From contig RSEE01000042.1 of assembly GCA_003971905.1 (NCBI GenBank), positions 372,001 through 436,000 of the forward strand: a DNA stretch of 64,000 nucleotides, given 5' to 3'. A model generated the notes under the pieces. It ran no database searches, was not told the DNA's origin, and was given only the letters and a program-made list of their open reading frames with translations. Every line of letters begins with the position of its first letter. The stretch's first letter is position 1. Source of the stretch: Moniliella sp. 'wahieum'. Its lineage: Eukaryota. The position numbers were made by a program, and so were the translations under genes. Of this stretch, positions 3,606 to 64,000 are shown piece by piece.

Positions 3606-4869
3606 ACTGCGACCCACCGCGTCTGCCATGTCGATCGCATTCCGCGGCCGAGGGACGCGCCGGCCGTGTGCGAGCGGGGTGTGGCTCGGGGCCAGTGTGG
3701 CTGCCCACCCGCTACAATTGCAATTGCAATCGCAATTTCCAATCCCCAGTCCCCACTCGCCCGGGGCGATCCCAATCCCATCCCACACCACAGATGTCCC
3801 ATCTCACCCGCCCTTCCGCACGGGCCTGCCCAAGCCGAGCGGGAGCTACTAGCTACGGGGCATGGACACACCCCAGCCGCTTATCGACCCGATCGGTAGT
3901 GTCCATTCCGTCTTCGGTCCGCACGGAAAGGACTGTGGCTTTCAGATGCCCCTCCCAGATGCCCCTCCCCGATGCCCCCCTCGAACCCCCTCGAACCCCT
4001 TTCGAGGGGAACACATGTAGACGTTTTCTCAGCCCTCAGTCAACGGTCCGGTCACCTGTCACCTGTCACATGTCACATGCCACATGTCACCTGCCCGGGG
4101 GGAGCCCGTTGAGTTGAACGTTTGAACTACGGTGACCAAGTAGGGTAAAATGAGTGAACACCCGCCGCCATCACTGATGGTCGATGGATGAGTCGATGAG
4201 GTCCTCGGCCTCGTCTGCATCGATCATCGATCATCGATCACCATGCATCATGCATCATGCGTCATGATCTTTTTCCTGTCCTGCTCTGCTCATCGACACC
4301 GCTCATCTGAACTCGATCCGGGTCCGACCCCACCGCCCAACACGCAGCCCCGCTCCCGGTGCATCTGTCATATCGTCCGCAACCAGCCCCTAGCTCCCCA
4401 CCAAGTACTAACCCACGCGGCTCCCAGGATCTCACAGCCCCCCCAGCCAACTCTGCGGACCCGCGTATCTACCAACGACCCTCGCCTCATCCTCTTATTC
4501 GCACGCCCCTTGCCCGGTGCCATATCCCACCTCTTCGGACGTCAATGATTAATGAGCAGCTACAACTCAGACTATGCACAGAAGCTCAGTGGCAAAAACG
4601 AGGAATATCAACTGGATCTTCCCGGTCCAAGCGGCCAGAGGGTATAGGCCACCAAGGGTAGGGGCGGACAGGAGAAGAAGGGAAGCGTAGGAAAGGGGAA
4701 CCAAAAGCGAACAAAGAGATGGAGCAAAAACTTGAAAAACAAAAAGCAAAGATTTTAGGGGAATCAGACTGGACACTGGACCTCAGGCCTGGGCCTGAGA
4801 CGCCTCAAGCCCCGAGGGCTGCGACCGCCGTGATCGGTCATGTTGCGGTGACCGCCCTAAAGGAGGGCC

Positions 4870-7800
4870 CTACTTCTTGAATGGGTTATGCAGCCGAGAG
4901 CGACGCTTGCTGCCAAACACGCTGGCCGCGTCCGGGGAAACCGATCCGGAAGGGCTAGTATGCTCAGCTGGGGAGTCCGAGGGAGGCGGCGAGCCCAACT
5001 GCGGACTGCCATCGGGCCCTGGGGCTTCAACGGGGGAAGACTCCATCTCGTTCCCCTCCTCGTCCTTGTGCCCCACGCGACGGACAAAGCCAAACGCCTT
5101 GGATGGCGCTGAGAACGCCGTCTTGCCCACATGGCCCACCGCCTTGATTCCTGCCTTGCCCACTTGCCCGGGCACGGCAACCGCGCCAGGACTGTGGCCG
5201 CGCGACGCGAGGGGCACCCATGCCGCCCGCCAGGACAGAGAGCGAGCGTGACAGTGGGCTGGTTGTCGCCCGCACCTTCGCCCACGATGGGAATCGTCAC
5301 TGTCGACCGCTCCGTCGACACGGAAGAGAGGTCCAACTGTGCTTCTCCCAGCGGACCGCAGACCCGACTTGGTCCCAATCATTGAGTGTAATCACCACCG
5401 GCTGCGTCGCGCGCGACGCACCACCACACACCTCCTCCAGTGTCTCATTAAACTGGGTCCAGGGTCTTCTTGACCACCTTGGATTTGGCCACGCGCTCGC
5501 CATCGACGAGGATGCGAGCGTACGGGTCAGACGACTTGCCCCGGTCCGCGGCACGTAGGTGCGCCGAGAGATGAGGTGGACAGTGAGGTAGCCATGGTTG
5601 TCAAAGCGCTCCGCCGGGTCGAGGGTGAGTGGCAAGGGAATGTACTTGCAAATGAGCGTCACGCTGTTCCCCCTTCGCTTGCGCCACGTTTCCCCCGCCA
5701 CGGGGATGGTGACCGGCTTATTAAAGGTCTTGCTCAGCAGCTCCTGCGTCGAGCCCTCGTACTCGGCGTACACATCATCCGGATCTTCACTGATGCCCTT
5801 GCGGAAGCGAATAAAGAACCGCGATGGACCCAGCTCCCGAATCACCCGCTCATGCACATCATCTAACGTCAGCGTACCAGCCGACTTGGACGGCTCGGTC
5901 TGGTACGAAGGCCAAGACGATTCGTCAAACCAAAACTCAAAATCGAAGTTTTCTCCTTGTTGACCGTCGCAGAGAGCACATTGAAGGCAAGCATACCGCT
6001 CTTGGACTCCAGCAACTGAGGGAGAGTACGCGTCACGGGCTCAGGTTCAGGCTCCTTCACTTCCTCGGGCTCACCCTCGCCTTCCTTACCATTGGCCTTT
6101 CCATCACCTTCCTTGGGCTCCTTGGTATCTTTGGCTTGGGCAGCCGCATTCTCAGCCTTCGTAGCAACGGCCTCCTTGACCTCATCCTTAGGTGGGAGAG
6201 CCGGCTTCTCTTCCACTTTCTCTCCACCATGGGGCAAGGAAGTTGACGCCTTGCAGGTTCAGCGCAGGGATAAACTCCACATCGTACTCAACAGTGCCTT
6301 TGTACTGATGTTTGCCAACAGCAATCATTTCCTTGCGCTGTTGGCGACCAAGGGACTTGTACGGGTACTCATTCTCACTCTTGTTGTCTTCTGCCAGCTC
6401 GGTGACGGGAATCGTAACCATGCCCAAAGGACGGTGCTTACCATTGTTCTGGAAGTCTTGCAACTCCAGGACGACCGTGTCGGAAAGGCTGTGTACCGGA
6501 GAGTAAAGAATCTCGTTCCAAACAGGGTCAAGGTTACTTTCCTGGACGTTGGTACGATCCACAATGGCCCCACGGAAGCGAAGCTGGACATATGGATCGC
6601 TCTTGCCCCCAGAAATTGCCTCGACATTTTTGACATCCAGTGCACGCTTGGCCCAGACCTTCAGGGTACCGATGGGAGGTGTGAGCCCTCACCACCATTG
6701 GCCCCGCCAGTCATCGCCACGGGTTTCCAGAGCGTAGCCAAACGCACTTTGGCGCCCTTGCCCAAATCAAACCATTCCTGGTCGCTGGCCTTAGCCTGAA
6801 TCAAGTCTTGCAGTCGCTTGGTCACTTGTCCCACGACAACGCCCGAGCCCATATCTGAAGTGACGACCTGGATCGATACCTTGCTCATATCACGGTTGGT
6901 CGAAAGGAACTCCTTGGTGTATGCCCAGTGGGGGGTTGCCGTACGTTTTTGGAAGACGATTCGCCCACTGTCTTGCCATTAAGCAAAATCCGAACCCACG
7001 TTGAAGGTTCGCCCAGTCCACGCTTCGACAAGCCCTTGGCCTCATGCACCGACAGGCGCACAATTCCACTACGCGACTCGGGAATTGGTTCATCCTGGCC
7101 ATCGGGGCCCTTGGTAGCAGTGAGAACAGGGAAGTATTGAGAGAATAGTTGAGCGTGCCACGATACCGCGCCGCCCAACTGAACGGGAGAAGAAGGCCCT
7201 CGCGCTCGGGCTCCGTGTCAAGGCCATCAAGGGGGTAGGACACAATACCCAGCTTGGTATCCGGGCGGTGGTCATTGAAATCCATGAGATGAAGGGTAAG
7301 GAAACCATTGAGGTTACGGACCAGAGCATACTGCGTCTCCTTCCACGTCGGGGAGTTTGTCGAGGGGATCGTCTTGGTGCGTCCCTGTAATTCGCCATCG
7401 TCGATGCCCAACGCCACGTACGGATCGGGCTTTCCGCCACCAAACTTGGCGCCCTTAATGTCCGTCGCGTTAGCAATGGTGACCTGTACCACACCCGTAG
7501 CCGAGTCCAAGGTTGCCCCGCCAAAAGTTCTTCGACATTGAGAGAGAAGACATTGGGAGCATACACCATCGGACCAAGAATATTGTTGACTTGATCCTTG
7601 ATGAAGTTGGTGAGCCCAGGGAGGTTGTTGACGTCCCAACCAAACGTGTGGCCCCCAACCGGCTTCAACACATAATCGTAGTAAGGCGGCTCCAGCATGG
7701 TCACATCGACAATTTGCACGTGCGGGAAGTTTGTGACGAGCTTCAGACGCAAACGCAGGTAGCCGCTGAAAGTGAAGTCTTCAACATCAATAGGGAGGGT

Positions 7801-9130
7801 GACGAGAGCGCGTCCTTTACCAAGCTTGACAGAGATACGAATGCGGGGATTGACTGTTGGCAGACTGCCGCTCAGTCAGGTCAATATTGTCGTGAGGCGT
7901 AAAGCTAAACTTCCAGTCCATCAAAACCACATCGTCCGGAGTATCCGGGAATGTGCGAACATGGTTGACACGCGGCGGTTTTGAGCCAAGGGTAAACGTG
8001 GGACCTGGAGAATCCAAGTCAGTGTCTCCATACGCATGTGGCTTCTCAATGGGGATAATATACTTACAAACGAACCGAATCGATAAAGGGGTAGATACTG
8101 TGGGATCTGCTGTTCGGCCTGAGAAACCACGATGCCGCAAATGATGGGTTCAAAGATGGGCCAGAAACCGGGCGAGGAAGAAATTGGCCCATTCCATGGT
8201 TTCGAACTGGTCCTCCATCTTTTTGGACTGAAGTTCGCGTGTAATTGGTCACGGGCACGTTGGCGAGCGCGGCGCATACCTGCATTCCAGTAGACAGCCA
8301 AAAACCGCACCCACAGTCATCGCGCCGCAAAGACCGAGACCCAGACGTGTGGCCAGCCAGGAAAGAAAAAGAGTAGCCAAAGCGGCAGCCGCTTGGTACC
8401 ACCAAAAGCCGATGAATGTCTGGAACACCCGCGGTAACCAGGGTGGACTCCCACGACATTTGCTTGATCTCATCGTTTTCGACCTCGGCAAAACGTACGC
8501 GTGTCAGGACCCTCGCGAGGAGCTCCAATGTACTGGGCAAACTCATGGAGAGAGACTGCGCGTTGTCGGCCTTGGCGGGGGCAGTGCATCCTTACTATCG
8601 GTGCTAGGGGCACCTTTTGTGCTGGGCTGCGGTTGGGGTGGGGTAGCAGCGGCCGTTTTCAAAGCCAAGAGGAGGGTCAAGGTTAGCGCGTGTTGAATGC
8701 ACGCGCGCCTGTCCATCCAATGATCGCATCGGGGCGCACACCGCCGACAGTGGTGGTGGTCTGGGTCGCGTCGCCGGTGCCGTCCTGGCCTTCTGCTTGC
8801 TGATGCGCTGGATGTCGCGAGAGAAATGGTGGGGCGGGCGGGACGGGCGGCGGGGGCAATGTCGAGGGCAGGCCGGCCCGTCAGCCGGCTTGGGTTGCTT
8901 CTTGAGGGCACCGCCTTGGCGGCGGCAGCAGCGGCGACGGCGGCATCGGCCTGCGCCTCGGGCGATGCGTTCTGGTCCGGGGGTCTTGGGGATCGGCCAT
9001 GCTGGCAGAGGGAACACACGCGGTGGTGGTGGGGAGGGGTAAGGCCAGCACGGACGCGAGTGACCAGGAGTGTCGTCAGCGTCCGTCGCTGCGCCAGCCG
9101 AGGGAGCGGTGGGAGCGTCATCATGCTCAT
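4870..9130 (-). CDS. Tricalbin / extended-synaptotagmin (hydrophobic hairpin, SMP domain, multiple C2 domains); frameshifted
   Basis: SMP motifs FWPIFEPIIC, FTLGSKPPRVNHVRTFPDTPDDVVLMDWKFSFTP and MRLKLVTNFPHVQ. C2 motifs GVVQVTIANA...GGKPDPYV, SGIVRLSVHEAK, NLDPVWNEILY and NHGYLTVHL. Stop after SRLHNPFKK at 4870; start uncertain. Confidence 0.9.
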
Positions 9131-14060: not shown

Positions 14061-15962
14061 CGCCCGGCGGCCCGCTCCTCCCAGATATACGCACGCACAC
14101 ACACACTTAGTAGTTCTTGTGGAGATGAAAATGACACAAGTCAACACTATATGTCTTCCCAGAACCCGGTGTTAGAGCGTAGTGCTAGAGTTCCCCTGTA
14201 CGGCCCTTGGTGGGTCGACGGTGACGCTCGCTTAGCCGGCCGGAAGAGCTCCGCTCTTGCAGGCCGCGCACGCCCTGCTGGCTCCATCTCCCTTCTCTCC
14301 CTCCTGTCTCCTTCCCTTCAGACGTTGCTTGAAGACTTGTGGCTCATCACTTTACCTTTTCACGCCTTTTTGTCTAAAGGCTGGTTTGCAGCTGATCCAT
14401 GGAATCGCGAGTGCTCCCAAGTCGCACTCTAGCACCCGGCGATCAGTAGGGCATCATTCTCACTGGGGGTGTGGCTCTTACGTTTGTCCAAGCTCCCTTC
14501 AATTCCTCCTCAGGACTCAGCCTGAGTCCTGTTGGGACAAGACTTCAAATAATTGGAGAAATATGTAGCCGAATGTGGTCGTTGGCCTCTGTAGGCGTGA
14601 GCACCTGAGGTCAAGCGTTAAAATCATATGCCCGTTAAGAAGTGCCGAGAGTGAGCAGTATGTCGTGAGGCGAGCCCCGATACGGAGCCCGACCCCGGAA
14701 AATTTAGGGGTGACCGGTGAAAGCCCTTGGACATAATGGCATTAGAGTTACGTACGCTAGCTCCTGATTCAGATCCTGTTTGAGCCGAGCGGGTGTAGAG
14801 GCAAGGGAGAAACCCTCTAGTTTGGGTGGCTGCCTGCGTGATGATGCAAAGTCCGCAGCTCAGACCTTCCAATGTAGGAGGGGCGTACTTACGTCGTATG
14901 ACCAATTGAAGGAGTCCAGGATCTCCGAAGTTACTCTGTTCCTCACAGCGTTACTACACTCTAGGTACGCTGTAGTATACGCGGGAACAGACAGAGTCCT
15001 AAAGAAGAAGAGCAAAAGCGCTACTGATAGTACCGCGGCTTACAGCGTGGTCGACGTAAAAGTCGTATATTCGTAAGCGTGAGGGTGAAGAGTGGAGAGG
15101 GAAGCCGGGGGAAAGACGTGGGGCTGGCGTGTGTTCGTTGAGAGATCTACGAAATGCGGGGCTCGGTGTCCGGAGATGATCGATGACTAGTGACTGTAGC
15201 GCCCCATAACAGAGTAATAGTGACTGAGAGAGGAGTTGGTACTTGGTGCTCTGCTGTTGCTGCATGCGTGATGCTAGCGTGACAATGAAGCTTTAAGTAC
15301 ACCATCTTAACGTTTAACCCTATAAGGGGAAACTTATATACTAACTCAGACACGGAGAGGGGGGAGGGATTGATCGATTGAGTGAGAAACCCGGGACGAA
15401 GGGTGTATAGTCGAAGGCAAAGCGCCAAATAATACGCCACAGTTTGGAATAGCACGGAGAGAATATGATAGCACGCCCATGCCTGAGGTCTGAGATCTGA
15501 GGCCTGATGTTTCCGTATATACGCTTGATGAAGCTTGAAGAGGGGCGGGTCTGGGCGGCCAGGCACTGTTACCGCACAGGATTTAACGGAAAACCCACCC
15601 CGCACCCAAGAGTTGGACATGTTTGAGATGTAAGCCATTGTGGAGACGAAGCATGTCTCTTCGCGTCTTCGGCATATGACAAGATCATGAGCGATCGATG
15701 AGATACAAGTTTATCTTATAGAGATAGGGGGGCAGGGAGAACACACTTGTTTGCGCGGGTAGATCACATCATCGGTAGACTAGTGACTTGAGGACGAAAA
15801 GAGGCATTCTCTCTCCACACGTTGTGTCAGGCATATGCCTTTTGACAAGGCAATGATTGATATATATGATACAGATTACCCCCTTTTGACATGCGTGACA
15901 GACAATAGTACGTGGAAACGTTCCCTATACACTGTATGTATTTCTCTGTGCTTCATCACTGT

Positions 15963-16040
15963 CTCTCTCATTAATCATTGAATCCTCTCTCATTAATCAT
16001 TGAATACTTACTTTTAATCAGTCCCCTCTCTCATTAATCT
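15963..16040. repeat. AT-rich direct repeats CTCTCTCATTAATC(ATTGAAT), three copies, upstream of the C2H2 gene
   Basis: Two 21-bp copies at 22-bp period (15963-16005) and a partial third copy at about 16025. Confidence 0.8.
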
Positions 16041-26799: not shown

Positions 26800-28007
26800 G
26801 GTGTGGGCGGCAATGCATCCCCCTGTGGCAGGGATGAGTGTCTGGCGGGGGATGGGGGGGTGGTGGAGAGATGGGGGGGAGAGATGGGGGCGGGGGAGAG
26901 ATGGAGGCGGATGGATGGGGACGTGGATGCGCTGCGGCGGGGGCGAACGGGGCGAGTTGAATGTTCAAGTTGAACGTTCACGTTCCAATGCAAGTTGAAT
27001 GTTTGCCGGTTGCACGTACCAGGTTGCAGGCTGCAGTTGAGACGATTAACGTTTAACGTTTATCGTTTATCGTTTCACGCCCCGCAAGCGGCAAGCGCAC
27101 CTGCGAGAGAGCTGGCAGGGCGCCGTTCACGCTGCCCGGTTCACGTTCCCCGGGCATCGAGCATCGCCCACACATCCAACATCGAACGCTCCAGCCATGC
27201 GAGCGAAGGGGCACAGGTGGGCACGCACTCAGTGCTCGGATATTCAATATTCAATAGACCCTCCGACCCCACACTCAGTACTGAACTCAGTACTCAGTGC
27301 CATCTTCCCCTATGATGCCATGATGCATTCGGCCCCATACTCTGCCTTTCTATCAGTGGCACTCACACGCTCCCACATGGCCCACTGGGTATATGGGCAT
27401 AGCATTAATGTACCAACCCACCAGCAACCCGGTCGGTTCCCGTCTGTGCCGGTCTGTGCTCCCGCGCTTGACGGTGTAGTGTCAGCAGACTTTTATAAGC
27501 GAGCCATCATCCATTGCACCCCCATTCAACATGTCCCTCCGTTCGAGGTGAACCTTTGACGCCCGCAAGACCAAAACAAGCTAATCCAGATCTGACCGAT
27601 TCCAAGATCTCCTGTCACTCTCATTGATACGCGACAAGTGCATGTTGTGGCACAGCGTGGAAGGTGATTGGTCTTGTCTTCGACTCCTTCCCGACCTGCA
27701 TGGGATGACGGATCACACACACATTCCCACAGGATGTGGGTATGATCCTTGTTCTAGATCTTCCTTGCCCCCTTTGTGTCTCTTTCCCCTCATCACGCGT
27801 CGTCTACCGTGTGATAGCTTCTCCTTCTCCTCTGGTATATAAGGCGCCATTCCATGCAGCCTGAATGAATACCTGTCGGCATCCGAAGCAATCTCCCTCC
27901 TACATGGGAGAACCAATGCGTGCTCCTGCTCCAGAATGAGGAAGATTTCAGCTGCCTCAGGAGACAGCTGTCAGTATCTTCGTCGTCTTGTTCTACTTGA
28001 AGGCATC

Positions 28008-33990: not shown

Positions 33991-35982
33991 ATGGTGGCGC
34001 GGCCCAAACTAACGCTCCGCAGCACTGCTGTGTGCTTTGAGATTTGAGCGCTGCGCCTCAGCGCTGGGCTTGAACCGAGGAAGGGTACACGTTAGACGGG
34101 ACGGGAATAGGGTGGCCATTGGTCATTTAATACGGACTAGCCCCTACGCGCTACGCTTTCTAAGAGCGGATGACGTCGATGACGCTGAGGATAGCGGCCC
34201 ACCTTGCCACCTCTCCGCCAGCACATCCAGCCAACACATCCGGGCAACGCATTCGCCTCCCCGCACAGCATCGGTTTGCGATGCAATGCGCCATCCGGTC
34301 GGTGTGGCTTTTGCGACAGAAGGGTCACGGGCTGGACCAATGCCGAGAAGACGATGGTTGCCGGGTATATAGGCAGCACAGCGTGCATCCCATCTCCGAT
34401 CGTGGATCTCCTGCCCTGCCGGCCTTGGCGTCTGGTGCCTGCGTACCGAAGAGTTAGCAAGGTGACAGGCAGCATTGCGGCGATAGAGGGCTACGCGCTA
34501 CACAGGCAAGTCGATTCCTCATAGACGGGACAGGGCGCAGCGTTGTGCACAGCACCGCACTGGCGCCGTGCCCAGTCTGGTGACGCGAGTGACGACAGTG
34601 GCCAGCTGCCAGTGACTGAGCTATAGTGAGACTGCCGTGTCGCGTTGCCCCGTGGGCAGCCGTTTTGCCACCGAATTGCCCCAGCGCGCATCCCCGGCGT
34701 AGCATCGCCTGCGGCCGCTGCCCTCCTCTCGCCCCGTCCCTCTCGCCTCGAACACCATCGACCTTCTCCGGTCGGCCAGCGGGGCAACTGCAATATTAAC
34801 CAGCGTTCAAACCGCCACCGGCCCTCAGGCGCGTAGCACTGGCCCACAGCCTCTAGCCTTACCGGTAACGGTTACCCTCACAGAGGCATCACGTATGTTA
34901 CAACGTCGCGTCCCGTACTGTCGTACACTACGCATCTCATAATTTTGTATCCAGTACAAAATGTCAGCCCCACGGTGGCCAATAGTAAATACGAGGCTGC
35001 GCTGGCTGAGGGTCCATATAGCAAAAAGCCAGTATACTTCCCCCCCCCCAATGTCTCTTCATGCTGAGGAGGAGGAAGGAAACCATCAGAAGAGATGATC
35101 GATGACATTGTATGCTTGGGGGGGAATACTAGAACAAGGAGACACAATTCAATTTGGGAATGACACAATCGAGTCGAAGAGATCCCAAGGGAAGATGTCA
35201 CAAAGCCCCCCGAGGACTTGGCTTGCTTTGATGGCTTATCGATCATCTCGTACAAAATTATCATTCTCTCTTTTCTCCCAAGGCGCACATGGATACTATA
35301 CTGTGAGGATATATCTACTAATGCACCCTGTGTCGGTGAAGCAGAGACAAAAACACGCCTCTCCTCGATGTATTATCGATGGGAATTAATCTGAACAGGA
35401 CCGTCTTTTCGTATAGTGCGAGAGTCTCGCCAAGGTCCTCAAGTCTGTGCTCTCCATCCCGGGTGCCCATGATTTCTATGAGAACCAATTGCGGGGAAGA
35501 AAAAGAAGGAAGACGTGATACGGATGATCGATGAGGTACCGTGGGCGCGAATAAGGGCCAGAAAAACGTTTGACGAATCGCAGGGGTGGAGGTTGAGTCA
35601 CTCATCATATACTCATCCCCCTCGCCAATCTTCTTCTAGCCTGTATCTCCAATCCGTCGTCCTCGGGCCATCCATGCATTTATACTTGTTCGAACCATAT
35701 AACCTGCCCACAGTCGACTGTTCTACCCCCCAACTCATGTGATCCATGCCGTCATGCCGTCTCTAGCCCATAAATCCCAGTGCTGACTGAACCCTGATTC
35801 CCTCGTCGCAGACTGGTTGCTTGTCTTATTCAATCCGAATCGAGATCCGAAACAGATATGATGGATTTGAGTGGTAATAGGGGCGAGAGCCAAGAGAAAG
35901 AGTAGCGATCGAAAGAGAACAGAAACGGAAAGGAGAAGAAAGAGAAAAAGAGAAAAAGAAAAAGAAGAAAAAAAGAGAAAAA

Positions 35983-35988
<6 letters not shown>

Positions 35989-36052
<64 letters not shown>
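35989..36052. repeat. (GA)n microsatellite, about 32 units, within a purine-rich tract
   Basis: Read directly. Confidence 0.97.
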
Positions 36053-36056
<4 letters not shown>

Positions 36057-38970: not shown

Positions 38971-41900
38971 GGTGTTCAGCGGGGGGGCGTGAGCGTGAGC
39001 GTGATCAAACGAATGTGGTGTATGGTCGAGGACCACGGCGGGGGACGCCTGCCGGCAGGCGAGGGGAGGAGAGGGCCAAAAGAATGTGGGTGGGGCGCAG
39101 AGGCCAGCGAGTTGGGGGAGGTGAAGGCAGGGATTGCCGTCGTCGGGGGTGTCGAGGACAGCGGGACGGATAGCAGAGGGGGCGGTGGTGGTGGTGGTGG
39201 AAAGCAAGGATGGGCCGATGGGGCGGGAGAGGAGGAGCAGGTGACTCGGGGCACTGGAGCAGCTGAGAGCGGTGGGCTGGCTGGCCTGGGTGCATGCCAG
39301 CACCAGGCGCCAGGGCGCTGTGGGGCGGGGCCAGGCGGGGCGGGGCGCAGGGGCAGTGTGAGGCAGACGGGGAGGGTAGGACACTGTGCGGGTGCGTGCC
39401 TGGGGCTGCCGTTTGCTGCCTGGGGCGTCCTGGGGCTGCCTAGTGCTGTCTAGTGCTGCCTAGTCCTGCTGAGCGGTGAACGCCCCCCCGCCCCTTGCGT
39501 GGCGCAAGCAGGGTATGTGCGGCGGCCAGAGCAGCAGCACGCCAGTGTGGGCGGTGGTCAGCGGTGGGCCACTGATGCACTGCGGCGCGTTCATGCGCTA
39601 GTGGATGATGGCGGATGGCTGATCGATGATGCCTGGATGCGCTGACGCAGGCGCAAAGCACACGAGACACCCACCGCGGGTTGGGCGAGTTTTCGCTGCC
39701 CTTTGGTGCCCCTGGGCGTTGTTGGCCAACCCCCCACACCCCCAACCGCCGCCAGCGTAGGCCACCGTCCAGCGGCAGTGGCCTGGTGGGGGCGTTGGTC
39801 GTTGTATTGCCTGAGGCCCTGAGGCCCTGGGCGCTGAGGCGTGGCTATTGAATCGGAACGCACGGGAAAGCACGGCGCCCTTTCCGGCCGTGGGCGTTGC
39901 AGGACCAGGGAACAGCTGATCCTGATCGACTGACCTGCGCCTGGGGCCTGCCCATGCTCAGGCGTTTAGGCACTCAGCCGACTCAGGGCCTCAGTCTTGC
40001 GTGTTCCCCACCAGGCGACTGGGCTTGGAAGAACAGTGGGCGTGGTATTAGGCTCTCATTTGTTGTTCTCCCAGTGCCAGAACAAATGACTGGCATTGAG
40101 ATATTGAGGTGCTGCGTGAGGCCTGAGGGCGGCATGAGGCGTTGGTAGGACCAGGGCAGGCAGCTCATGCATCATGCATCATCTACCACTGATCGATCAG
40201 TGCAGATCCCCTCTGGCATCGTGCATTGTGGGCTATGGCGCCGCTGTGGCTGGACAGGGCGACGCCGCACCGTTTGGGATGTGTGGCCGACTCAGGAAAC
40301 GGCAGGTCTCGATATCATGGCACAGGCGCCATGCCTACGGTGGGCAGGGTGCCGACCCCCGAGTCCTCGGATGTCGGACAATCGATCATCGATAATCGAT
40401 AAGAGCTCACATGTCGCATGCCACAGCGGCGTGGTGCCCCTTTTGCCCGTCTTTGCCTGTTTTGCCTGTTTTTGCCCGGCGTGCTCCACACAGAATTCAG
40501 CTGGGTGGGTAACCGTCACATGTCACACCCAGTCACATGGCACACAGCCCCTGTCCCATGCCACGCCATCACATGTCAATGGATGTCACATGTCACACCC
40601 ACAGGTCACATGGTCACAGCCGTCACACGTCAACTTCTGCGAGCCCAACATGATATGTGATCGACACGTGATCGATGATCGATCTGATTAATGATTCGCC
40701 TCTTTCTTTTTCACGTACACGGCAGGTATAGCGAAACAACAGGCACATTTCGTTCCCTAGGCTTTATTGCTTCTTGTGTAGGTCAAGTGCGGCATAGCAA
40801 CACTGCGACGCCAGCCATGCTGCTCACGCTCACAGTGCCCCTTCGTCGAGTGCAGAGAGAGTGGCGTCGCCAGAGCGAATAGCAGATGGCAATACAACAC
40901 AGGAGCACATTTTGTACTTCCACAGACACATCGCCCACACCTTCACACACCTCTCCCGGGATCCTTTTGATTAGCCTTTGATTGTTCCCATTCAATTCAC
41001 TCCTATGCCAGGCATAGTTGGACAGAGCATTTTATGCTTTCGCACCACCACCACAGCTCGCCCGCTCCGGCCTGAGTGGTGGCGACTGGCTACCTACATA
41101 GTGTCCCTGTGTAGGTGTTGTTGCCAGATTGAGTTAGGCTATACAGCCACAACTATTAATGCAACGCTTTTGCACCATAATCACGTTTGGATGACGCTTG
41201 AGGTCAAGCTTAATCCTGAAGGCCACACATCAGCACTGCTGAGTGTGGACCCCAGGACTCCAGAGCTCATCAACAGAAGAGTAACACTTCTTTGCTCATC
41301 TCCAAAACAGTAAGCAAAAGGAGGATGTAAGACCGGAGGAACCCAAGGGATTGGGTGAAGAACCTCTGGACGCAACGGTGGATGCGACAGTAAAAGGATG
41401 TGGCTGTTGGCGCTGTGAACGGCGATCCTGTATGATCTGGTATAACCTCTATCAACGGAAGAAACGGTTCAAGAGAGCCAAAACCTGTCTATTGCCCTGG
41501 TGAAGACTCGGTCCACTTCAATCTTTTGTTCTCTCTCCAACCCCATATTTCCTCGATCCGACGTGCCCAGGAGGGTTGTGGAATCCCCGGACGCAAGTGC
41601 CCATCTCACCTGTGCTTTTTCGATGTACCCAAACCCCTACCTACCCACTTGTCTAACCCTTCCAATGGAATCTCCCTCTTGCTTCTGATGCCCAATCAGA
41701 TCCGAACGGGTCCGTGGTGAGTCGTAACCCCCGCCGCAGGGGCATTCATTACGTATAGCCCATGAAGATATATGCTACAAACATCACTCTTGCCGGTGTA
41801 CAGCGAGCCGGATGGTTCTTCTGACGATTGAGATGGCGATGAAGCTGGAATGTTCTTCTGAAAAACTCTTCCCGCATTCATGTTCGTCACTATAGTGGGT

Positions 41901-51400: not shown

Positions 51401-54283
51401 GACGCTGTTGACACGCCACAGCATGCATAGTACTCATCCCTTATACACCGGCGTGGAAGAAGACTGAAAATGACGTTGTGGTTGCTGTTAGAGGAGTACA
51501 AAAGGAGTCTTCCACATCTGTCACAGTCGGGGCTAAGGCGAGGGAGACCAGGGTCGGGACTAAGTCAAGGAATGTAACAATACTTTGTGGGGAAGAAGCA
51601 AGAGCAGAGAGGCATGGTGCGAAGAGGAGGAAACAGGGAAAGTGCGAGACGCTCGGGACAAAGAAATTGGAAATGGGAGCGAGCTAAGATCAGCCAAACT
51701 ATGACACCAAACCTGTGCTCCAATTACCTGTTACATGTTGCCGCCTCTCGTCTTTGGAAGACTCGCATTACGCACTGTTATGTCGATTCCACCCGTATAG
51801 TTTACTCGACCCACACACACCTCACAACCACCCGTGCGCTTGTCACAGAATGACTAAGCTCGCTCCAATTTCCAATTCTGCATCCGCCTGTGTCTCTCTC
51901 TTCCCTTTCCTTTTGCTTCTGTTCTCTGCCCGATGCCTTCTGTTTCTTTCCACGAACGATCTTGCCTTTCCCCTCGCCTCTGACAGGACCTTGGTCTCCC
52001 TCGTTTAGCCCAACTGTTGCACATTTTGCCCACATGACGACAGAAGGGACTATATGGGAGGGATATGCGCAGAGGAGGAGAGAGATGATCGATGACCTCT
52101 CTGCCGGTACCTTTTCTCACTGTTTGGTCAATCTGTGGAAGAAGAAAAGCTATATATAGATTGCGCGGAATGTGTGCTACCTATTGGCGGACTAGGAGAG
52201 GGACTCTAGCGCACAGCTCCGACGCTCTCAAATATATCGTTGGGTGCCTTGGCGTCTACCGATCTAATCAACAATCATTAATCAACGTTCAATAACACGT
52301 TCAACGTGTTCAACCACCATCAAATCCGTTCTACGCTGTGGCGCTGTAGATTAGATACGCTTCTGAGCTTCCGACATCATCGACAACATCCGCCCTATTG
52401 ATGGAGAAACTTTTAATGTGTCAGCCTGCAAGCTGCAAGACCCTAATAGCGCTCAGCCCACCGGCCACCGGATAATGTTTAGGAACAGGGGATCCAGTTT
52501 CAGCTTTTATCAACACTACCCTGGGAAGTATTTGTGTGGTTTCCTGACGCCCTCACCTCCTCCAACACCATATATGAAGACTTGGGCTCCCCCCGCCTTT
52601 GTCATTTGATCTCCATCGATTACCACTTCGTGTGCTGTGCTCTCCAAGCTCTTTGTAGGTGTCATTATACACGCTCGCCTCCCAAAGGGATTGCATATAA
52701 GCCGTTACATGACACGTCTCTATCCACTCATCGACTCATCACAGCACTGATTTCTTGGCATTAATATCCCCCCCACCCAACGTTGTGGCACTATGTGGAG
52801 GGCAGAAGGACGGTGGACTAAGATACATCGATCGGCTGCCTATGGATGGGGCCGGGTTGGGATCCGAGCATGCATGATGCATGACCGGTGACCGGGTGAC
52901 CATAGACTAGGTGGCGCTGATTTATCCGCATCCAAAAAAATACCCCGCTCTTCCAGGACTTCCGCGTTGCGCGTTAACACCTTGGATCGGATAGCCTCCT
53001 CGGCTTACAAAGGTCTAATAAAGCTGGTCTACCTCACGCTCAAGCCTAAAAAGGCGAAGAACGCCTTTTTAAGCGCTTACTTACTTGCTTTAAGCACCAT
53101 AGCATCCCAGCTTCCGGGCCTTTCAAAACGCTCCAAGCCACCTGTGTTGAAGAGTGTGAGAGTGGCTAGTGATGCATGATGAATGATGTATGATGCATGA
53201 CGTGTGATGTGTGGCTGGGACGTGTGAAACTTGTGAAAGACGACTGGCCCGGGCCATGTCAGAAAACCCTGTGCCTGAGGCGTTTGCAATCGGCACGGGA
53301 GGTCACCGGTCACCGGTCACTGGTCAAGCTTCAAGGATGGAATCATCGATGAGCTGTGTACCATGCAACTCCCAACTGAACTGCGGCATCCGGGAAACGG
53401 CGGACCGCGTGACGCGGAACGTAACCTAGTACGCGCGGTTGAAAGCATGGCCAGGGTTAGACGTTAGCGCGTTAGCAGGGGCTAGTCCGTGTTAGAGTGT
53501 GGTGGCAGCCCGATTTTTTCAGTCTGGGCTAGCGCGCAGCAGGAGCTAGCGTGGCGGGTGTGGGATCCGGTCTGAGCAAGTCAATGCATGTGGCTTCTTT
53601 CGCATGGACAGAATTTGAGTAGCAGCACTACTACTGAGGACTCAGTCTGAGTACTCACTGTCCTGAATCGAGAATCCTTGAGTCTGAGTACTGAGTCTGA
53701 GTACTACTGAGTTATTCAGACTGAGTACTGAGTGGCAGGAGTAGCGCGGCCGAGCGCCTAATAATGGGGGGGCGGCGCAGAGCCTAGGTAGCAGGGCCCA
53801 GCACTAGGGCTCTCAGATCTCTTTGAGGCCGATCAGGCACAGCGCCGCAGTGGCCGATTGTCGCCTGCGCGGCCCCACATCTCAGAAACTCAGAAACCCA
53901 CAGCTCAGATGGGCCATGTGACATGCGGCATGTGAGGGCTGCGGTGTCACGCGGGTCACGTCTTACACTGGCCTGGTGCCGCCTGCTGCGCTCTAGCCCC
54001 TCGGCGCGGCGGCGGGTTTGATTGTTTCATCGTTGCAGTTTGGGCCGGCGCATGCAATGGGTGAGCGTGGCCGGTGAGGCGGTGTCCTGTGGCCGGTGAG
54101 CGCCCTGTCAGGAAACTGGCAGCGAGCCACGAGCCACGAGCACCCGTCCTGGCCTGCTGTCTTCCTCCACGCCCACGCCCACGCCCACTGCATCCATCGC
54201 CCCTCGCTCGCCACCTCCGCTGTGCGCTCCCCCGCGCCACCACCACCCCACCGCCGCCGCCGCCCCCCTCTCCGCCCCTCCAC

Positions 54284-57693: not shown

Positions 57694-58996
57694 CTTTGCA
57701 GCTTGGGTGCACGGTTGCGCGCGCAAGAGGGCGCGCGGACCGTTAAGTACGCGGTGGTCCCGTAGCTAGTCAAGGGGGTACCGCGGAACTGCTGTCCGAG
57801 GCCCTGGGACGGCCTTGTGGGACACTGTGATGAGGCTGGTGAATTTTGGTGGGACACTGTCGTACCCTACTTTCCTCGTCTTTCTGCCGTGCCTCTGGCG
57901 GCCAGCAAAGATGCACGATCCATGCTCGCTCCTTGGGCTTCTTCACGTGGCCTGAGCGGCGAGGAACTTGGTGGAGCAATCAACAATTCACACTTGGCTT
58001 GCTGCCATAGTGAACCGGGATGACTGGGATGGCCGGGATGGCGGAGAGTAGTAAGGCGGTAGCAGCCGAGGAGCTTAGCACCCCGGCCCCCTTCTCTCTG
58101 AATGTATACAGGCCGTTGCTTGCGAGACAGACCGCTCCGGAGGAAGGGGGGGGACAACACGAGCAAGAAGGCGACCAACCAAAGCGGTAAAACAGGCCGG
58201 GGCATGTTCTCATATGCTTGTTCACCCTGGCATTGGGTCGGCGGGTCAAGCGATCTCGATTGCCAGGTCAAATGAACCAAGTCGGGTGGGGCGAAGTCAT
58301 TCGTGCTGTGCACAAGAGTCTTGCATGGACCAAAAGCGATGATCGCCAAGGGACGAGTGGCTCCAGCGCGGTGCGAGCCAAGGGGTGTCCCAAGAAAAGA
58401 AGCAAAGCAGACGCCCTCGGCGCGCCCGTCTGTCCGTCTCTTGCCACCCCCTCACCCGGAAATGTGGGCGCTCAGGGGGATGTGTCCTCTTCTTCTGATG
58501 CCGCTCGTCCCAGAAGCGCTCAACGTCAGACAGCCAAAATCAACCCGCTGCTACCTTCAAACGTCAGCATCAGACATCCAGAGCTCAGACTGAACGCTCT
58601 TCCAAGTTCAGAGCACTACAAGGCCTGCCCACGCTCCCCGTTCGCGGGCTGATTGATATCTATTAACCCCCAATCGCCCCTTTTCGGTCCACTTGCGCCC
58701 CTCGCACTCTACCGAGACCCAGCATCACCGGATCAACTGAACCTTCACGTGCTCCAGTAGTTCGTGGTTTAGAATTCTCGTACAGTAAAATTCTGTTCTA
58801 CATCGCCTGTCAGTGCCCCTTCACAAACATCAGACTCCAATTCTCGCCCCGCTCATGCCTTGAGCGCGCTGAGCCATTTATCTTGTCTACATACCTTACT
58901 CCAACTATGTTCCCAGGTTTGAAGGAAAGGCACATGAATCCACCGAACTTGACAGAACATGAAGGCCAACGGGAAAACAAAGACGACCGACTCGGC

Positions 58997-61589
58997 TTAG
59001 AGCTTGTCGTAGTACTCCGTGTAGGGAGGAGGGATCTCCTTGATGCCCTTGCGCACACGGATTTTGGTCACCAGCTCGTACACCTTCGACTTGGGGTCGG
59101 ACGCGTCGCCGGGCAGCTCCTCCCAGTGGTCGAAGACCGACTGGGGGAAGGCCTGACCACCAGTAGCCTGGCGCAGGGCAGCGTTGAAACCGAACGACTC
59201 CGAGACGGGCAGGTAAGCCTTGACAGTGTACATGGGGGTACCGGGGCGCTGCTCCTCCATGACCACCTGGCCACGGCGCTTGTTGAGCGTCGAGTAGATA
59301 CCACCCAGGCCCGACTCGGGGCACTGGATCTCGACCAGGTACATGGGCTCCTGCAGCGCCGGGGTGGCGAGCAGCGCGGCAGCGTAGCAGACACGGCGCG
59401 CCGTGGGGATGATCTGTCCACCACCACGGTGGATGGCGTCCGTGTGCAGCGTAACGTCGACCACGTTGAAGCGCACACACACGCATGGGCTCCTCGGCAA
59501 GAGGACCCTCCTTGGTGGCCCACTGGAACGCGGCCACACACGAGTCCTTGATCTCGTTAAGGTACTGCACACCCTTCGTCACATCCACCATCAGGTTGGG
59601 GCCAGTCGTGTCAGGGCCAAAGGTCCAGATCTTACGAGCGTCCGTAACGTCCCAGCCAAACTCGTCGGCAAGGTAGCGGCACGCGACTTGAAGTCGTCGC
59701 GGGGGTTGACCTTGCCCTCCTCAATCGCGCGCGACAGCTCCTCACCAAGGGGAAGAGCGTCGACGTAAAGACGGTTGTGCTTGTTCTGCGACTTGGACAG
59801 GGCAGTCATGCTGCTCTGCGTCGTCACAGTCTCACGGTAGCCAACAACGGGGTCGGACTTCTTGAGGGGAACCTGGGCGTGGTCGTTCTCAAGGTCGTTG
59901 AGGCAGATCTCGAGGTGGAGCTCACCGGCACCGGCAACAATGTGCTCACCCGACTCGCCAATCCACGCCTGCACACAGGGGTCCGACTTGGTCAGACGCT
60001 TCAGACCCTCGACCAGCTTGGGCAGGTCGTTGGCGTTCTTCACCTCAACGGCGACTTGCACGACGGGCGAGACCGAGAACTTCATGACACGCATGTTGTG
60101 CGCCGTCTCGGACGATGAGGGTACCGCTCTTGAGCAGGAACTGGTCAACACCAACCAGACCCAGAATGTTACCGGCGGGGCAGTCTCTCAATGGGCTCGA
60201 CGTAACGGCCCATCATGAGCACGGTACGCTGAATCGACTTGATGAACAGGTCGTCCTTCTTGCCGGGGCGGTAGTTGGGCCCTGGATGCGGATCTTGGGG
60301 CCAGAGCGGACGGTACCAGAGAAGATACGGCCGAAGGCGTAGAAGCGGCCCTTGTCCGAGGTGGGGACCATCTTGGAAACGTAGAGCATCAGCGGGCCCT
60401 TGGGGTCGCAGTCACGGATACCAATGGCCGACTCGTCGTCCATGGGGCCCTCGTACAGAGTCTCAACACGGTAGCGTGAGCCGTCTTGGGCGAGGGGAGA
60501 TTGATGACAATCATCTCCAGCAGGGCGTCACCGGCGGGGAGGAACTTGCGCATGACAACCTTGAGGAGAGCCTTGCCCTCGAGGTCCTTCTCATCCTGGG
60601 TAAGGGGCACCTCGAGCTTCTCGAGAATCTTGCAGTCTCGTCCTTCTTGAAGTTCATCACCGAGTCGAAGATACGGTAGATGGGGTCGAGAACGAACATG
60701 TTGAACGCACGCTCGAGGGGCTTGCCGTCAGCGTCGGTCGACTTGGTGGTCCACTTCTTGGTCTTGGGTTGAAGTAGTTGTCGCCCCACAGCTTGCCCAT
60801 CATCTTCTCCTTGTCCACACCGAACTTCTTGGCGTAGCGGGCAGCGAATTGGGACAGGGTGAAGGCCCAGCCGTGGAGACCCGAAGCGAAGGCGACAGTG
60901 CCCTTCTCGGGGTAGACCTGCGACTCGCCGAGACGGGGTCGTTGTAGGTGGCAATGACCACGTTGACCGACTCGACAGTGCGCTGGAAAGAGGTGTAGAG
61001 CTCCTCCTTCTCGACCTGCAGCTCGAGAAGAGCACGGTCGACCTTGTTCAAGCAGCAACAGGCTTGATACGCTCACCAAGAGCCTGGCGCAGCACAGTCT
61101 CGGTCTGGACGCACACACCCTCAATGCAGTCGACGACCACAAGGGCACCGTCGGTCACACGCAGAGCAGCCGTGACCTCCGAGGAGAAGTCAACGTGCCC
61201 GGGCGAGTCAATGAGGTTGATCAAGAACTCGTTGCCCTGGGACTCCTGCTTGACGTTCTTCATCTCTCGGGAGAGAGGGGGAAGAACATCGAGATGGCAG
61301 TGGACTTGATGGTAATACCACGCTCCTTCTCATCGTCACGCGTGTGGTGAAACGCATGTCACCAGCCTTGGCCGAGGCAATGATACCGGCCTTGGAGACA
61401 AGCGAGTCGGTCAGGGTAGACTTGCCGTGGTCGACGTGGGCAATGACACTCATGTTACGAATGTTGGTGGACTTGTCCATGAGACCACGGATCTCGTCAA
61501 CGGTAAAGTTAACCCTGAGATGAGCCAAAAGTCAGCAACAGCTCGGCATCAACGTGGGGCGCCAGCATCAAGGGGAGCCAGACGCACAT
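58997..61589 (-). CDS. EFT2: Translation elongation factor 2; many single-base indels
   Basis: [50 protein letters not shown], diphthamide loop [20 protein letters not shown], ends YYDKL*. First intron 61515-61587. Confidence 0.98.
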
Positions 61590-64000
61590 TTTTGAAGGAA
61601 GCCCTTTCGGGGACGGTGGGGGGATTGGGTGGGAGTGGGGGGGGGGAGGCTCGCAGCGGGACGAGCGGGAAGGTGGCGGTAGAAAAAGTACTGCGGAAGA
61701 CGAAACGCCGTGGCAAGAAGCAGAGCGGCGCGACCATTCCGACCGAAAAAATCCTCCTGAATTTTCGCGCGCACCATCCCACTCTTCCCCGGTCTGCGGC
61801 TTCATCTGGCACCAGGGCGCTGTTGCCACCTTGTATTTCGTTAGGGTTCCACATGCTCTGATGCCCGTGCACTGCGGCCTATTGCGGCGCTGCGCAATTG
61901 CAATTGGACACTGCCCCCACGTGCTGGGGCCACCGCGCGGTAGCCGGCACCAGGCGGCAATGCGTTTGGACGCTCAGCGTGGATTATGTAAGTGCACACC
62001 AGTCGCCCGAGGGAACACTACTGGAACAGAGCCAGCCTGGCGGCTCACCTATTTCTATCTCTATTTTCATAACGCAGACCCCCTGCTTACCTATTTGTTG
62101 CTTACCTATTTGTTTGCGTTGTTTGCAACCCACCCCGCGCGCTCAGCCATGCACATGGGTGATAAAATTCCTCCAGCGTGGAATGGTGGCTATGGTGGCT
62201 ACGATGACGAGGGAACGGTAGCGAAGGTGGCGAAGGTGGACCGGTGGCTAAGGTGGCGACGGTGCACCAAGCACCAAGCTGGGGCGAAGCCCCAGCTGAC
62301 CGGGCCGTAGGCCCGGTGGTCTTCTAGTTATTTTTAGCTGCCACGTTTCTCTTCCTTCTTCACGCTATACTTGCCCCACTTGCAGTTACTTTGGCGGCGG
62401 GGCCAGTGCTGGAGATGAAAGCATCTGCGTCCCTCCATGCCAGCAACCTCTGTCGATCAACTTCTCATCTGCGTTCACGTACACAACCGCCGCTCCTCCT
62501 GGCGCATCATGAGTACTGGAGTGTGGATGTGGGGTAAATCCACCGCCCACAGTCGACGCTTTTATTATCTGGTAGGGGGGGCGGCCTGTACAGGTCATTG
62601 AGGCTTGGAACTTGAAGCATGAGTGCAAGGGGCTTGAAGTTGACCGTTGGAGCAGCTGAAGCTTGAGGCTTGAAGCTTGAAGGTCAAAGTCCAAGGTCAG
62701 AGAGATGTGAGATGTTAGGCCTTAGGCCTTAGGTCTGATCTGAGGCGCCTGAGGCTTCACCTGAAGTTCAGGCTTTGAAGCTTGAAGCTTGATCAATGTT
62801 ATAGTGATCGATGATCCCTCTGCTGGTGCTGATGCACTGATGCACTGATGCCTGCTGCTTCGAGCTTCAAGCTCTTCAAGCTTCAAGCTTCATCGACTTC
62901 ATGGATCGTCACGCGTCATGCATCATGCACCATGAACTTGCGTAGTCCGTGTATGATTGTGGGGCCGACGGGAGAGGGCTTGTCGCGCTATTATGCACAA
63001 CTTTAACTCTCTGTTGTACGTATATGGTGCTTGGCATGCTGACATGGCGCGCTGACAGCAAAGCGCTGAAACAGCTGGCATATATATCCCAGACCTTGCA
63101 TTTTGGCCAGAGACCCTATATAGGCCCCAGCCCATCCCAGCCGTGGGGGTGGGCTAACTGTCGTGGAGCTTCAACTTGAAGCTTCAAGCATGAAGCTCAT
63201 GAAGCTTGAAGCAGGACCTAGCGTGGTCACTAGGTCACTATATATATTCGTCTCCTTTTAGGAAATTTAGAGCGCCGCGTCTCCACAGCAAAGTGGGCGC
63301 ACATCTTTGCCCCATCCTTTCCAACTCTCGGGAAAAAAGCGTGCACGGCCGCCTCTCCATAAAATACCTCTGAAGAGGTTATCATTTTGTTGCTGGAGAG
63401 GATTAGGCTGCCAACAGCAACAATGTGCGTAAAATATGGTGGGATGCGGATGGTGCTTGATGCTCTCGTATCCAGCTTGTAACCCCCCACACTATACCCC
63501 GGAGGCCGTGACGCGTAATGGCCCCACAAGCCGTTCCGAAAATTGGCGGTCTATATACGCCACAAAAAGGCTAATGTATATGGCCGCCGGCGCCTCAAAA
63601 GCGTACTCATCACCGGCATCGCCAGCAACCCCGCACGCTGTGGGGTGTGTTTGTCAATGCTGTTTGGTGCCGGTGGTAGCAGGATGCGGGGAGGAGGCTG
63701 AGCGTACTACGATCCAGGCACACACATAGGTGTCTTCATTCTGGTTTGCGTTTTGCGTTCTACTGCCGAAGATGCATGATGCTTGATGCATCTGCATCAT
63801 CTCACATTGATATCATCTCATTGTGATCTCATTGATTGCTCTGAGGCTCACTTATGTGGGTCTGCATGATTGCGATGACGGCCCAGATGTGAAGTAGGGT
63901 GCATAAAAGGACGACGACCAGGTCCTTTTTTTCTGCCGTCTCCCTCCCCCCCACCCACACCACTCTTCCTTTGACGTCTTAACCTCCTTTAACTCCTCAA

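Follow-up and report, generated by a model that had tools for sequence, protein, structure and literature searches.

Palindromic T-N-A heptanucleotide units in the non-coding DNA of a Moniliella contig, tentatively read as hairpin-type mutational footprints

The present analysis concerns one window, i.e., a single 64-kb stretch of DNA (64,000 nucleotides) from Moniliella sp. 'wahieum' (assembly GCA_003971905.1, contig RSEE01000042.1, positions 372,001 to 436,000; all coordinates below are those of the window), and a class of 7-bp units found in it, each made of a T-any-A triplet (written TxA or T.A) and a palindromic 4-mer filler. The window has a G+C content of ~57% and, as indicated by Pfam searches on its open reading frames (ORFs), contains nuclear eukaryotic genes of the ordinary kind, many of them intron-bearing. 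A codon-usage score marked 23.4% of the window as strongly coding-like; this coding map is approximate and the score conservative, and the remaining 'non-coding-like' DNA (~49 kb) takes in weakly biased genes and introns. Expected counts were obtained from dinucleotide-preserving shuffles of the whole window, with 500-bp block shuffles as a control. The period-7 observation is confirmed as real and far above chance. Six clusters (at about 4, 15, 27, 40, 52-53 and 62-63 kb), several of which lie upstream of genes, hold 59 of the 78 10-mers of the form TxA-pal4-TxA (pal4, palindromic 4-mer), and 77 of these 78 fall beyond the strongly coding-like DNA, in agreement with the original prediction, in which no such arrays had been noticed in coding regions. 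Altogether, about 64 elements of at least 11 nt occupy the ~49 kb of non-coding-like DNA and total ~850 of its bases, that is, by a rough estimate from counts and lengths, less than 2%.

The eight patches from which the 7-bp pattern had been proposed were all recovered at their positions. In the first cluster, about six (GTCACCT/GTCACAT) units keep TCA in phase between CCTG and CATG fillers (4051..4092; T.A chain 4052-4075), and (ATCGATC)x3.3 is followed by (ATGCATC)x3.6, i.e., the hexamers ATCGAT and ATGCAT plus C (4218..4266). In the second, two mirror-image 12-mers stand around one common TGA (GATGA-tc-GATGACT-ag-TGACT, 15175..15195), with the filler TCGA derived from the left flank GA of this TGA and CTAG from its right flank CT; short elements are then grouped at 15307..16001 (12-mers at 15307, 15529, 15968 and 15990; a TGA chain with GATC and GGCC fillers at 15484-15507). 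Upstream of the G-alpha gene are (TTAACGT)x2 (TTATCGT)x2 at 27046..27075 and (ATATTCA)x2.4 with (ACTCAGT) units, containing the hexamers AATATT and AGTACT, at 27240..27298. An isolated 12-mer, GATGATCGATGA, occupies 35094..35105. The cluster at 40117..40696 includes TGAGGCCTGAGG (40117), (TCATGCA)x2.6 (40165), (ATCGATN) units (40381-40402), GTCACAT runs (40515-40632), (TGATCGA)x2 (40669) and TGATTAATGATT (40685), with 11 10-mers in that kilobase. Between 52 and 54 kb we found GATGATCGATGA again (52084) with AATCA-tt-AATCAAC-gt-TCAA (52273-52292) and recurrences of GTTCAAC (together 52084..52307), then (ATGCATG)x2 adjoining (TGACCGG)x2 in phase around one TGA (52870..52895), a (TGATGCA)-type array of about six units with point-mutated fillers and also a 21-bp higher-order repeat (53170..53211), (GGTCACC)x3 followed by TCAAGCTTCAAG with the TCA phase kept (53301..53335), and TGAGTAC/TGAGTC units with periods 7 and 13 (53648..53733). 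The largest cluster (62657..62929) comprises (TGAAGCT), (TTAGGCC)x2.7, (TGAAGCT)x2.6, TGATCGATGATC, (TCAAGCT)x2.7 and CGTCA-cg-CGTCATG-ca-TCATGCA, and is followed at 63175..63212 by units of CTTGAAGCTT, AAGCTTCAAGC and TGAAGCTTGAAGC and two copies of a 9-bp variant, CATGAAGCT. Tandem Repeats Finder (TRF) assigned period 7 to seven of these stretches, namely 4051-4090 (5.7 copies, 90% matches), 4218-4240, 4242-4266, 27042-27079, 40583-40632, 53170-53210 and 53301-53326. The period that it assigned to 53679-53733 is 13, from a unit of 6+7.

Variants of these units were also observed. The 9-bp unit CATGAAGCT is repeated at two distant sites (12591-12615 and 63189-63206) and consists of the 7-mer TGAAGCT plus CA, the inverted complement of the next TG, i.e., a period-9 variant of the junction type described below; a period-8 variant array, (CTGATGCA)x3, lies at 62829-62851. 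Within 52283-52315, GTTCAAC occurs three times, and the neighboring 8-mers AACACGTT and AACGTGTT are mutually reverse-complementary with single C bases between, as though one segment had been inverted in place between TCA separators spaced at period 9.

Among exact short arrays, the most frequent period is 7, with 24 arrays against 1.35 expected (20 dinucleotide shuffles), while periods 6, 8 and 9 gave 17, 12 and 11 arrays, respectively. Autocorrelation of T[CGT]A in the non-coding-like DNA showed the peaks that had been anticipated, at lag 7 (146 vs 78.0, z 7.5) and lag 14 (110 vs 76.5, z 3.4); lag 21 was not significant (z 0.6), and |z| remained at or below 2.5 at all lags from 3 to 29 except 7 and 14. 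In coding-like DNA, the same lag 7 is depleted (7 vs 21). Chains of T.A with period 7 reach at least three units in 28 cases (5.3 expected) and at least four units in 10 (0.23 expected), and no excess of T.A chains was observed for periods 4-6 and 8-12. As also anticipated, only one class of palindromic hexamers is overrepresented, namely A....T (262 vs 168.7 ± 13.8), and the other classes show no excess (C....G, 270 vs 304; G....C, 281 vs 312; T....A, 172 vs 182); it is likewise in the A....T class only that hexamers pair at lag 7, whether identical (13 vs 0.03) or different (6 vs 0.40). These excesses are left standing by the 500-bp block shuffles. Chance alone would provide ~7 of the TxA-pal4-TxA 10-mers and ~5 of the three-unit T.A chains, and a few listed instances (e.g., 11126, 21737, 30007 and 42254) are probably coincidental. 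As an explanation of the whole signal, chance, low-complexity composition or an assembly artefact is nevertheless extremely improbable, since 10- to 170-fold excesses survive whole-window and 500-bp block dinucleotide shuffles and the signal is seen with a single period and a single class of palindromes, and is specific to non-coding DNA.

The original prediction described a 7-bp grammar in which a T[C/G/T]A triplet is kept in phase with a filler that is often palindromic. The phased T.A and its filler are indeed present, and the palindrome proved to be required rather than frequent: TxA-F-TxA with a palindromic filler F occurs 78 times against 7.2 expected, whereas with a non-palindromic F it occurs 119 times against 122.6. 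Conversely, period-7 repeats of palindromic 4-mers lacking T.A show only a generic 2.3-fold excess. The list of triplets was correct for the middle bases G, C and T and incomplete, as TAA occurs too (in chains, G 42, C 36, T 11 and A 9, so that C or G makes 78 of 98). In chains of at least three units, 40 of the 70 fillers are palindromic, compared with an expectation of 1/16, and no fewer than 13 of the 16 possible palindromic 4-mers are found as filler. A palindromic hexamer is present in 15 of the 24 exact period-7 arrays, in every case as A-NNNN-T plus one spacer base; the other 9 are no commoner than arrays of period 8 or 9, and the period-7 excess is thus due to the A-NNNN-T class alone. 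The most overrepresented hexamer in the non-coding-like DNA is ATCGAT (33 vs 8.3), followed by ATGCAT, AAGCTT, ACATGT, AACGTT, AGTACT and ATTAAT. An excess is also seen for fillers that a single substitution separates from a palindrome (inner pair only, 18 vs 6.8; outer pair only, 14 vs 7.4), as expected from neutral decay by substitution. The center base shows no strand bias: overall, G occurs 42 times and C 36 times, and once the units are oriented by event, C occurs 10 times and G 9 times. Finally, 11-mers of the form F-TxA-rc(F) with non-palindromic 4-nt arms (rc, reverse complement) are not enriched (13 vs 11.7), and odd palindromes around TxA were accordingly rejected as pre-existing targets.

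When exact period-7 runs of the T.A plus palindromic 4-mer class were binned by length against 200 shuffles, we obtained 21 runs of 10 nt (10.0 expected), 17 of 11 nt (2.5), 22 of 12 nt (0.57), 6 of 13 nt (0.17) and 19 of at least 14 nt (0.07). The modal run is thus a sharply bounded 12-mer of ~1.7 copies and not a long array. Two mirror phases take 19 of these 22 12-mers (0.12 expected), namely TxAN1N2-N2'N1'-TxAN1N2 (10 vs 0.03) and its reverse complement (9 vs 0.09). In other words, a 5-nt direct repeat, TxAN1N2, flanks a dinucleotide that is inverted and complementary to the repeat end beside it, without a loop between them, and it is from this combination that both the palindromic 4-mer and the A....T hexamer follow. 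No excess was found at any run length for the A.T, C.G and G.C analogues (at 12 nt, 0, 1 and 2 vs 0.8, 1.7 and 1.6). Counted in any context, such 12-mers number 61 against 0.35 in block shuffles. Across all repeats of the form D+spacer+D, this junction type occurs mainly when the repeat D is 5 nt long: of 92 such repeats with a 2-nt spacer, 31 have a spacer that matches the neighboring repeat end in inverted complement (4.6 expected), 19 of the 31 belonging to the T.A class; the junction is found less often at 6 nt (9/24) and 7 nt (5/19), where many cases are one- or two-base variants containing TxA. Of the 38 isolated 10-mers, 24 have identical middle bases in their two triplets, 8 have complementary ones and 6 have some other pair, which favors direct copying over a simple fold-back that would give complementary bases. 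The identical 12-mer GATGATCGATGA is present four times (15175, 35094, 35523 and 52084), which may mean that the generating process prefers certain sequences or that the 12-mer is a genuine motif. The longer context AGATGATCGATGAC is common to three of the four copies.

The anatomy of the 12-mer bears on whether the units could have been left, as footprints of the classical type, by a PIF/Harbinger- or CACTA-like element that duplicates a 3-bp TNA target, in which case the filler would be formed by two terminal nucleotides from each end. Such an origin would give 3 + 4 = 7, a direct TxA repeat and a palindromic filler, and Tc1/mariner-type footprints are near-deterministic. It is, however, very unlikely here, as the 19 12-mers extend the repeat by the first or last two bases of the filler, which termini cannot explain, at least 13 fillers would demand as many element families, and no such element was found in the window. 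Moreover, the center base is C or G in ~80% of cases, while PIF/Harbinger prefers A or T. The dependence of the filler on the flank thus rules out fillers as transposon termini with a 3-bp duplication, and a PIF/Harbinger footprint sensu stricto (a 3-bp TWA duplication plus remnants of the termini) does not match the 78/98 C/G centers and the flank-dependent fillers. The units do share with Tc1/mariner and PIF/Harbinger footprints a TNA-like triplet and the layout of a short palindrome set between direct repeats, but their filler comes from the flank and not from element termini and their center base is C/G and not A/T. Excision of mPing/PIF is mostly precise.

A second possibility is that the units are functional cis-elements, i.e., upstream palindrome arrays bound by dimeric factors or shaping chromatin and maintained by selection. 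Indeed, the clusters lie in long intergenic spacers beside gene 5' ends, upstream of the G-alpha gene (27.0-27.3 kb), of a BAH/bromodomain gene (40.1-40.7 kb) and of the mitochondrial EF-G gene (62.6-63.5 kb), some exact 12-mers recur, as GATGATCGATGA does, and one hexamer, ATCGAT, is more overrepresented than any other. We nonetheless consider this explanation unlikely: the use of nearly the whole set of palindromic 4-mers leaves no single specificity, the T.A spacing shows no excess by itself, the palindrome of the modal element, which is asymmetric, is set by whatever dinucleotide flanks TxA, and decayed copies are frequent. The flanks of 34 ATCGAT sites show no conservation except for GA/TG, and only T, A and palindromy are common to the sites, where a conserved recognition sequence would be expected of a dimeric factor. 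The original prediction had specifically proposed a dimeric factor binding T[CG]A-N4-T[CG]A; the data do not support it, given that T.A-N4-T.A is at its expected frequency once the filler is not palindromic, that so many different fillers are used, that the element is asymmetric and sharp-ended and that single-substitution decay products are common.

Adjoining units with different palindromes bear on how a single unit may arise. The earlier suggestion that simple slippage of one microsatellite is insufficient is supported, since adjoining in-phase units can differ at all four filler positions (TCGA/CTAG at 15177, TTAA/ACGT at 52268 and TGCA/CCGG at 52875); arrays of 3-6 units do exist, but the mode is a 12-mer of fixed phase, and unrelated units adjoin in phase. 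Seven such heterogeneous cases were found, including that at 53301-35, and six of them parse alike, with one TxA flanked by L1L2 on its left and R1R2 on its right, a leftward unit with the filler rc(L)L and a rightward unit with the filler R rc(R). The shared TxA and its flanks are GA-TGA-CT (15177), TC-TGA-GG (15484), AA-TCA-AC (52268), CA-TGA-CC (52875), CG-TCA-TG (62909) and GG-TCA-AG (53303). The seventh case, at 42254, does not fit the parse; its T.A chain begins 13 bp past a tRNA-Arg gene, just after the terminator, and may be due to chance. As the filler is made from the dinucleotide beside TxA, many sequence-specific agents are not needed, and as this is the flank of the TxA itself, an origin from transposon termini is ruled out.

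Judged from the sequence, the units are discrete 7-bp additions at T-S-A sites (S, C or G), with a flank-templated zero-loop inverted dinucleotide, and a +7 event appears able to run left or right from one TxA using its own flanking dinucleotide, from which the presence of unrelated palindromes in phase around one TxA would follow. Among the three generators originally proposed (a binding factor, a chromatin or boundary signal, and hairpin-mediated template switching or excision footprints), the last is the best fit to a 5-nt direct repeat combined with a 2-nt zero-loop inverted flank copy. We therefore tentatively favor, at somewhat less than an even chance, the reading that the units are scars of a TNA-centered, hairpin-forming cut-and-paste activity, amplified by repeated hits and slippage. 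The likeliest agent, a candidate only, would act, for example, through the excision of a transposon with a 7-bp target duplication.

The proposed event would take place at a T-S-A site (with S being C or G in ~80%) and add exactly 7 bp, TxA-N1N2 becoming a 5-nt direct repeat with N2'N1' inserted between the copies. A staggered break centered on TNA would duplicate the 7 bp nnTNAnn, both flanks would become hairpins, and each hairpin would be opened 2 nt off its tip to leave 4-nt palindromic 3' overhangs. If one overhang were kept and the other lost, the product would be TxA-N1N2N2'N1'-TxA-N1N2 or its mirror image, for a net gain of 7 bp. The agent may be a cut-and-paste transposase that hairpins the flanks, either by excision or by abortive action. 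Repeated events on the duplicated target, together with replication slippage and higher-order duplication, would then build arrays of up to ~6 units, these arrays would decay through point mutation, and elements would survive only where a +7 frameshift is harmless, i.e., in non-coding DNA.

Several observations are consistent with such hairpin-type scars. One geometry yields both mirror forms and the net +7 without tuning, and flank-templated zero-loop palindromic (P) nucleotides are characteristic of ends that were closed by a hairpin and then opened off its center, as in V(D)J recombination and hAT excision. The direct target duplication expected of an excision scar of this type is found as the 5-nt TxAN1N2 repeats of the 19 12-mers, and the expected loopless palindromic nucleotides templated by the flank as the inverted-complement spacers of the 31 5-nt repeats. 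Ordinary repeat dynamics are also visible in the arrays, with higher-order periods of 14 and 21 bp. In PMC5873905, hAT (Ac/Ds) excision footprints and the P nucleotides of V(D)J coding joints are likewise described as flank-templated palindromic insertions with few predominant outcomes, and in both, as here, a direct target repeat flanks a short zero-loop palindromic insertion templated by the flank. The elements nevertheless differ from those of hAT, which makes 8-bp duplications at nTnnnnAn with a palindrome centered on one complemented base, in their gain of 7 bp, their T-S-A target, their even-centered palindrome and the absence of an element in the window. Since hAT geometry would lead to A-x-T arrays with arbitrary fillers, and since A.T-phased period-7 structures are not enriched in the window (A.T chains, 1 vs 0.13), hAT-type arrays were rejected. 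Galileo/1360 (P superfamily, Drosophila) also has 7-bp palindromic target-site duplications, and resembles the present elements in the 7-bp duplication of an odd-palindromic target. It is a Drosophila element with one fixed consensus, however, P-type excision leaves inverted-repeat remnants and not flank-templated dinucleotides, and Galileo/1360 is not known from fungi.

Some results weigh against hairpin-type scars. None of the 300 ORFs scanned in the window has a transposase, integrase or reverse-transcriptase domain by Pfam, a scan for terminal inverted repeats with target-site duplications found no such element in the 64 kb, and no insert lies between duplicated T.A-centered 7-mers in the window, the single match being an artefact between two arrays. 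The alternative joints are not clearly enriched, whether both overhangs are kept (+11, TxA-pal4-pal4-TxA, 1 vs 0.17) or both are lost (+3, TxATxA, 52 vs 38.1 ± 6.7), and the outcome is thus more uniform than in usual transposon footprints. The reconstructed targets are asymmetric, with T after TxA in 11 of 21 and A before TxA in 4 of 21, and the ancestral state of each element is reconstructed and not observed. Furthermore, ~64 elements of at least 11 nt in ~49 kb of non-coding-like DNA represent a high density for a region without a transposon copy, and to our knowledge no superfamily combines a 7-bp duplication, a TSA-centered target and flank hairpins. Topoisomerase I, whose cleavage consensus (A/T)(G/C)(A/T)T resembles TSAT, was set aside, as its known mutational products are 2-5-bp deletions, even though T so often follows TxA.

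A rival explanation is a replication-based origin involving neither nuclease nor transposon, i.e., a template switch at a pause past TxA. Here, replication would pause 2 nt past TxA, 2-3 nt (N2'N1'T) would be copied from the complementary strand, the terminal T would realign on the upstream T and xAN1N2 would be recopied; the self-complementary units would then grow by slipped-strand or hairpin intermediates. This scheme yields the modal 12-mer exactly and deterministically and fits the near absence of other joint types. Short tandem repeats with a wide range of periods also abound in the window (179 rows in TRF, with periods 3-9 all above shuffles), its arrays have 14- and 21-bp higher-order repeats, and strand switches would give the mixtures of TGA and TCA that are seen, because the reverse complement of a (palindrome+x)n array is the same array with x complemented. 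At a larger scale, direct-inverted-direct replication errors are known as small inverted triplications, described for segments of ~150 bp with spacers (PMC13334657); the inverted part here, by comparison, is 2-3 nt, has no spacer and is tied to T.A. We regard this origin as rather improbable nonetheless. All that realignment would require is that a base and its complement stand two positions from each other, and A.T, C.G and G.C forms would therefore be expected. None of these is enriched, and neither are the odd palindromes with 4-nt non-palindromic arms around TxA (see above). Single-strand folds of nine arrays were inconsistent (z +1.46 to -2.98, four of the nine being worse than shuffles), the folding energies of the five arrays of 41-59 nt lie between just -4 and -8.5 kcal/mol, and the clustering in six patches is not predicted. 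The lack of a consistent trend in these DNA folds also led us to reject hairpin stability as a general driver.

The elements were also compared with ordinary repeats. They resemble heptanucleotide microsatellites and promoter tandem repeats in forming short head-to-tail non-coding arrays with higher-order structure, and are unlike them in following one compositional rule over many unrelated units, in their ~1.7-copy mode, in their fixed ends and in their in-phase abutment; the 9 of 24 exact period-7 arrays that are not palindromic are, as noted, no commoner than arrays with a period of 8 or 9. The 'palindromic microsatellites' of Fusarium (PMC7218506) are mitochondrial and of a different kind. 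No match to the T-N-A plus palindromic-4-mer heptamer rule, or to these motifs in fungi, was found in the full-text literature (subscription journals and supplements lie outside its coverage), which agrees with the initial statement that no named element follows this rule.

If hairpin-type scars are indeed what the window contains, it holds a mutational signature precise enough to rebuild single events and would provide a rare case in which the birth of a microsatellite can be traced to one defined molecular step. A further prediction would be an enzyme whose target (nnTSAnn) and geometry of cleavage are both defined, and the elements, concentrated in upstream spacers, would serve as hypervariable markers and give rise to variation among promoters. 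One may go further and suppose, with clear reservation, an undescribed T-S-A-directed, hairpin-forming DNA-breaking activity in this fungal lineage, either a low-copy active transposon of a novel kind or a domesticated transposase, writing '+7 = 5 direct + 2 inverted' scars at ~1 per kb of intergenic DNA, seeding most heptanucleotide repeats and remodelling upstream regions. Under a replication mechanism, by contrast, the strictness with which the units depend on T.A would suggest a sequence-specific step of pausing or switching that has so far escaped recognition.

The genes of the window were located by Pfam on both strands. On the forward strand are NECAP/DUF1681 (9652-10236), an alpha-SNAP fragment (17929-18321), V-ATPase subunit d (22731-24003), Myb (46236-47410), SOG2 (50350-51159), RGS (55341-56012) and SPC12 (57118-57690), and on the reverse strand a Tricalbin-like C2/SMP protein (5300-7875), a HAD hydrolase (19757-20290), an aminotransferase (21930-22688), G-alpha (25517-26964), the BAH/bromodomain protein (37033-38531), a proteasomal AAA ATPase (42556-43899), NAP1 (about 44300-45488) and mitochondrial EF-G (58908-60187). 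Two tRNA genes are present, an 86-nt and possibly intron-containing tRNA-Asp(GTC) (12977-13062, reverse) and tRNA-Arg(CCT) (42170-42241, forward). The named best relatives of the NAP1 domain belong to Ustilaginomycotina (Sporisorium, Pseudozyma, Thecaphora, Tilletiaria, Tilletia, Malassezia and Jaminaea), with 54-61% identity, and one further sequence reaches 86% identity. Judged by this single protein, the DNA would come from a basidiomycete belonging to Ustilaginomycotina, the group of the smuts and Malassezia. Two regions, 10484-18114 (~7.6 kb, with a lower G+C content of about 50-54%) and 29732-37554 (~7.8 kb), have no strong codon-usage signal and almost no Pfam matches, and may contain weakly biased or lineage-specific genes. 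A 382-aa ORF on the reverse strand (17968-19113) has no Pfam match.

Other repeats were observed in the window. A segment of ~835 bp occurs twice in direct orientation (28029-28863 and 30390-31223; 2360-2362 bp apart, 97-100% identity). The copies would have arisen by tandem segmental duplication in the recent past or else form the ends of one element. The DNA between them contains no Pfam domain, and a 52-bp unit is repeated 2.7 times in it (29103-29242). Dense tandem repeats fill 3360-3610 (a run of G and units of 12 bp, x4.9, of 10 bp, x3.9, and of 13 bp, CTGCCTACGCCTA x6.3), none of which obeys the T.A rule. A 148-bp purine tract, made of (AG)x35 and GAAAGA-type units, lies at 35911-36058. 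Finally, the region 30001-40000 displays a strong G-over-C strand asymmetry, with a GC skew of up to 0.34 at 32-34 kb, and many G-rich short repeats on the forward strand.

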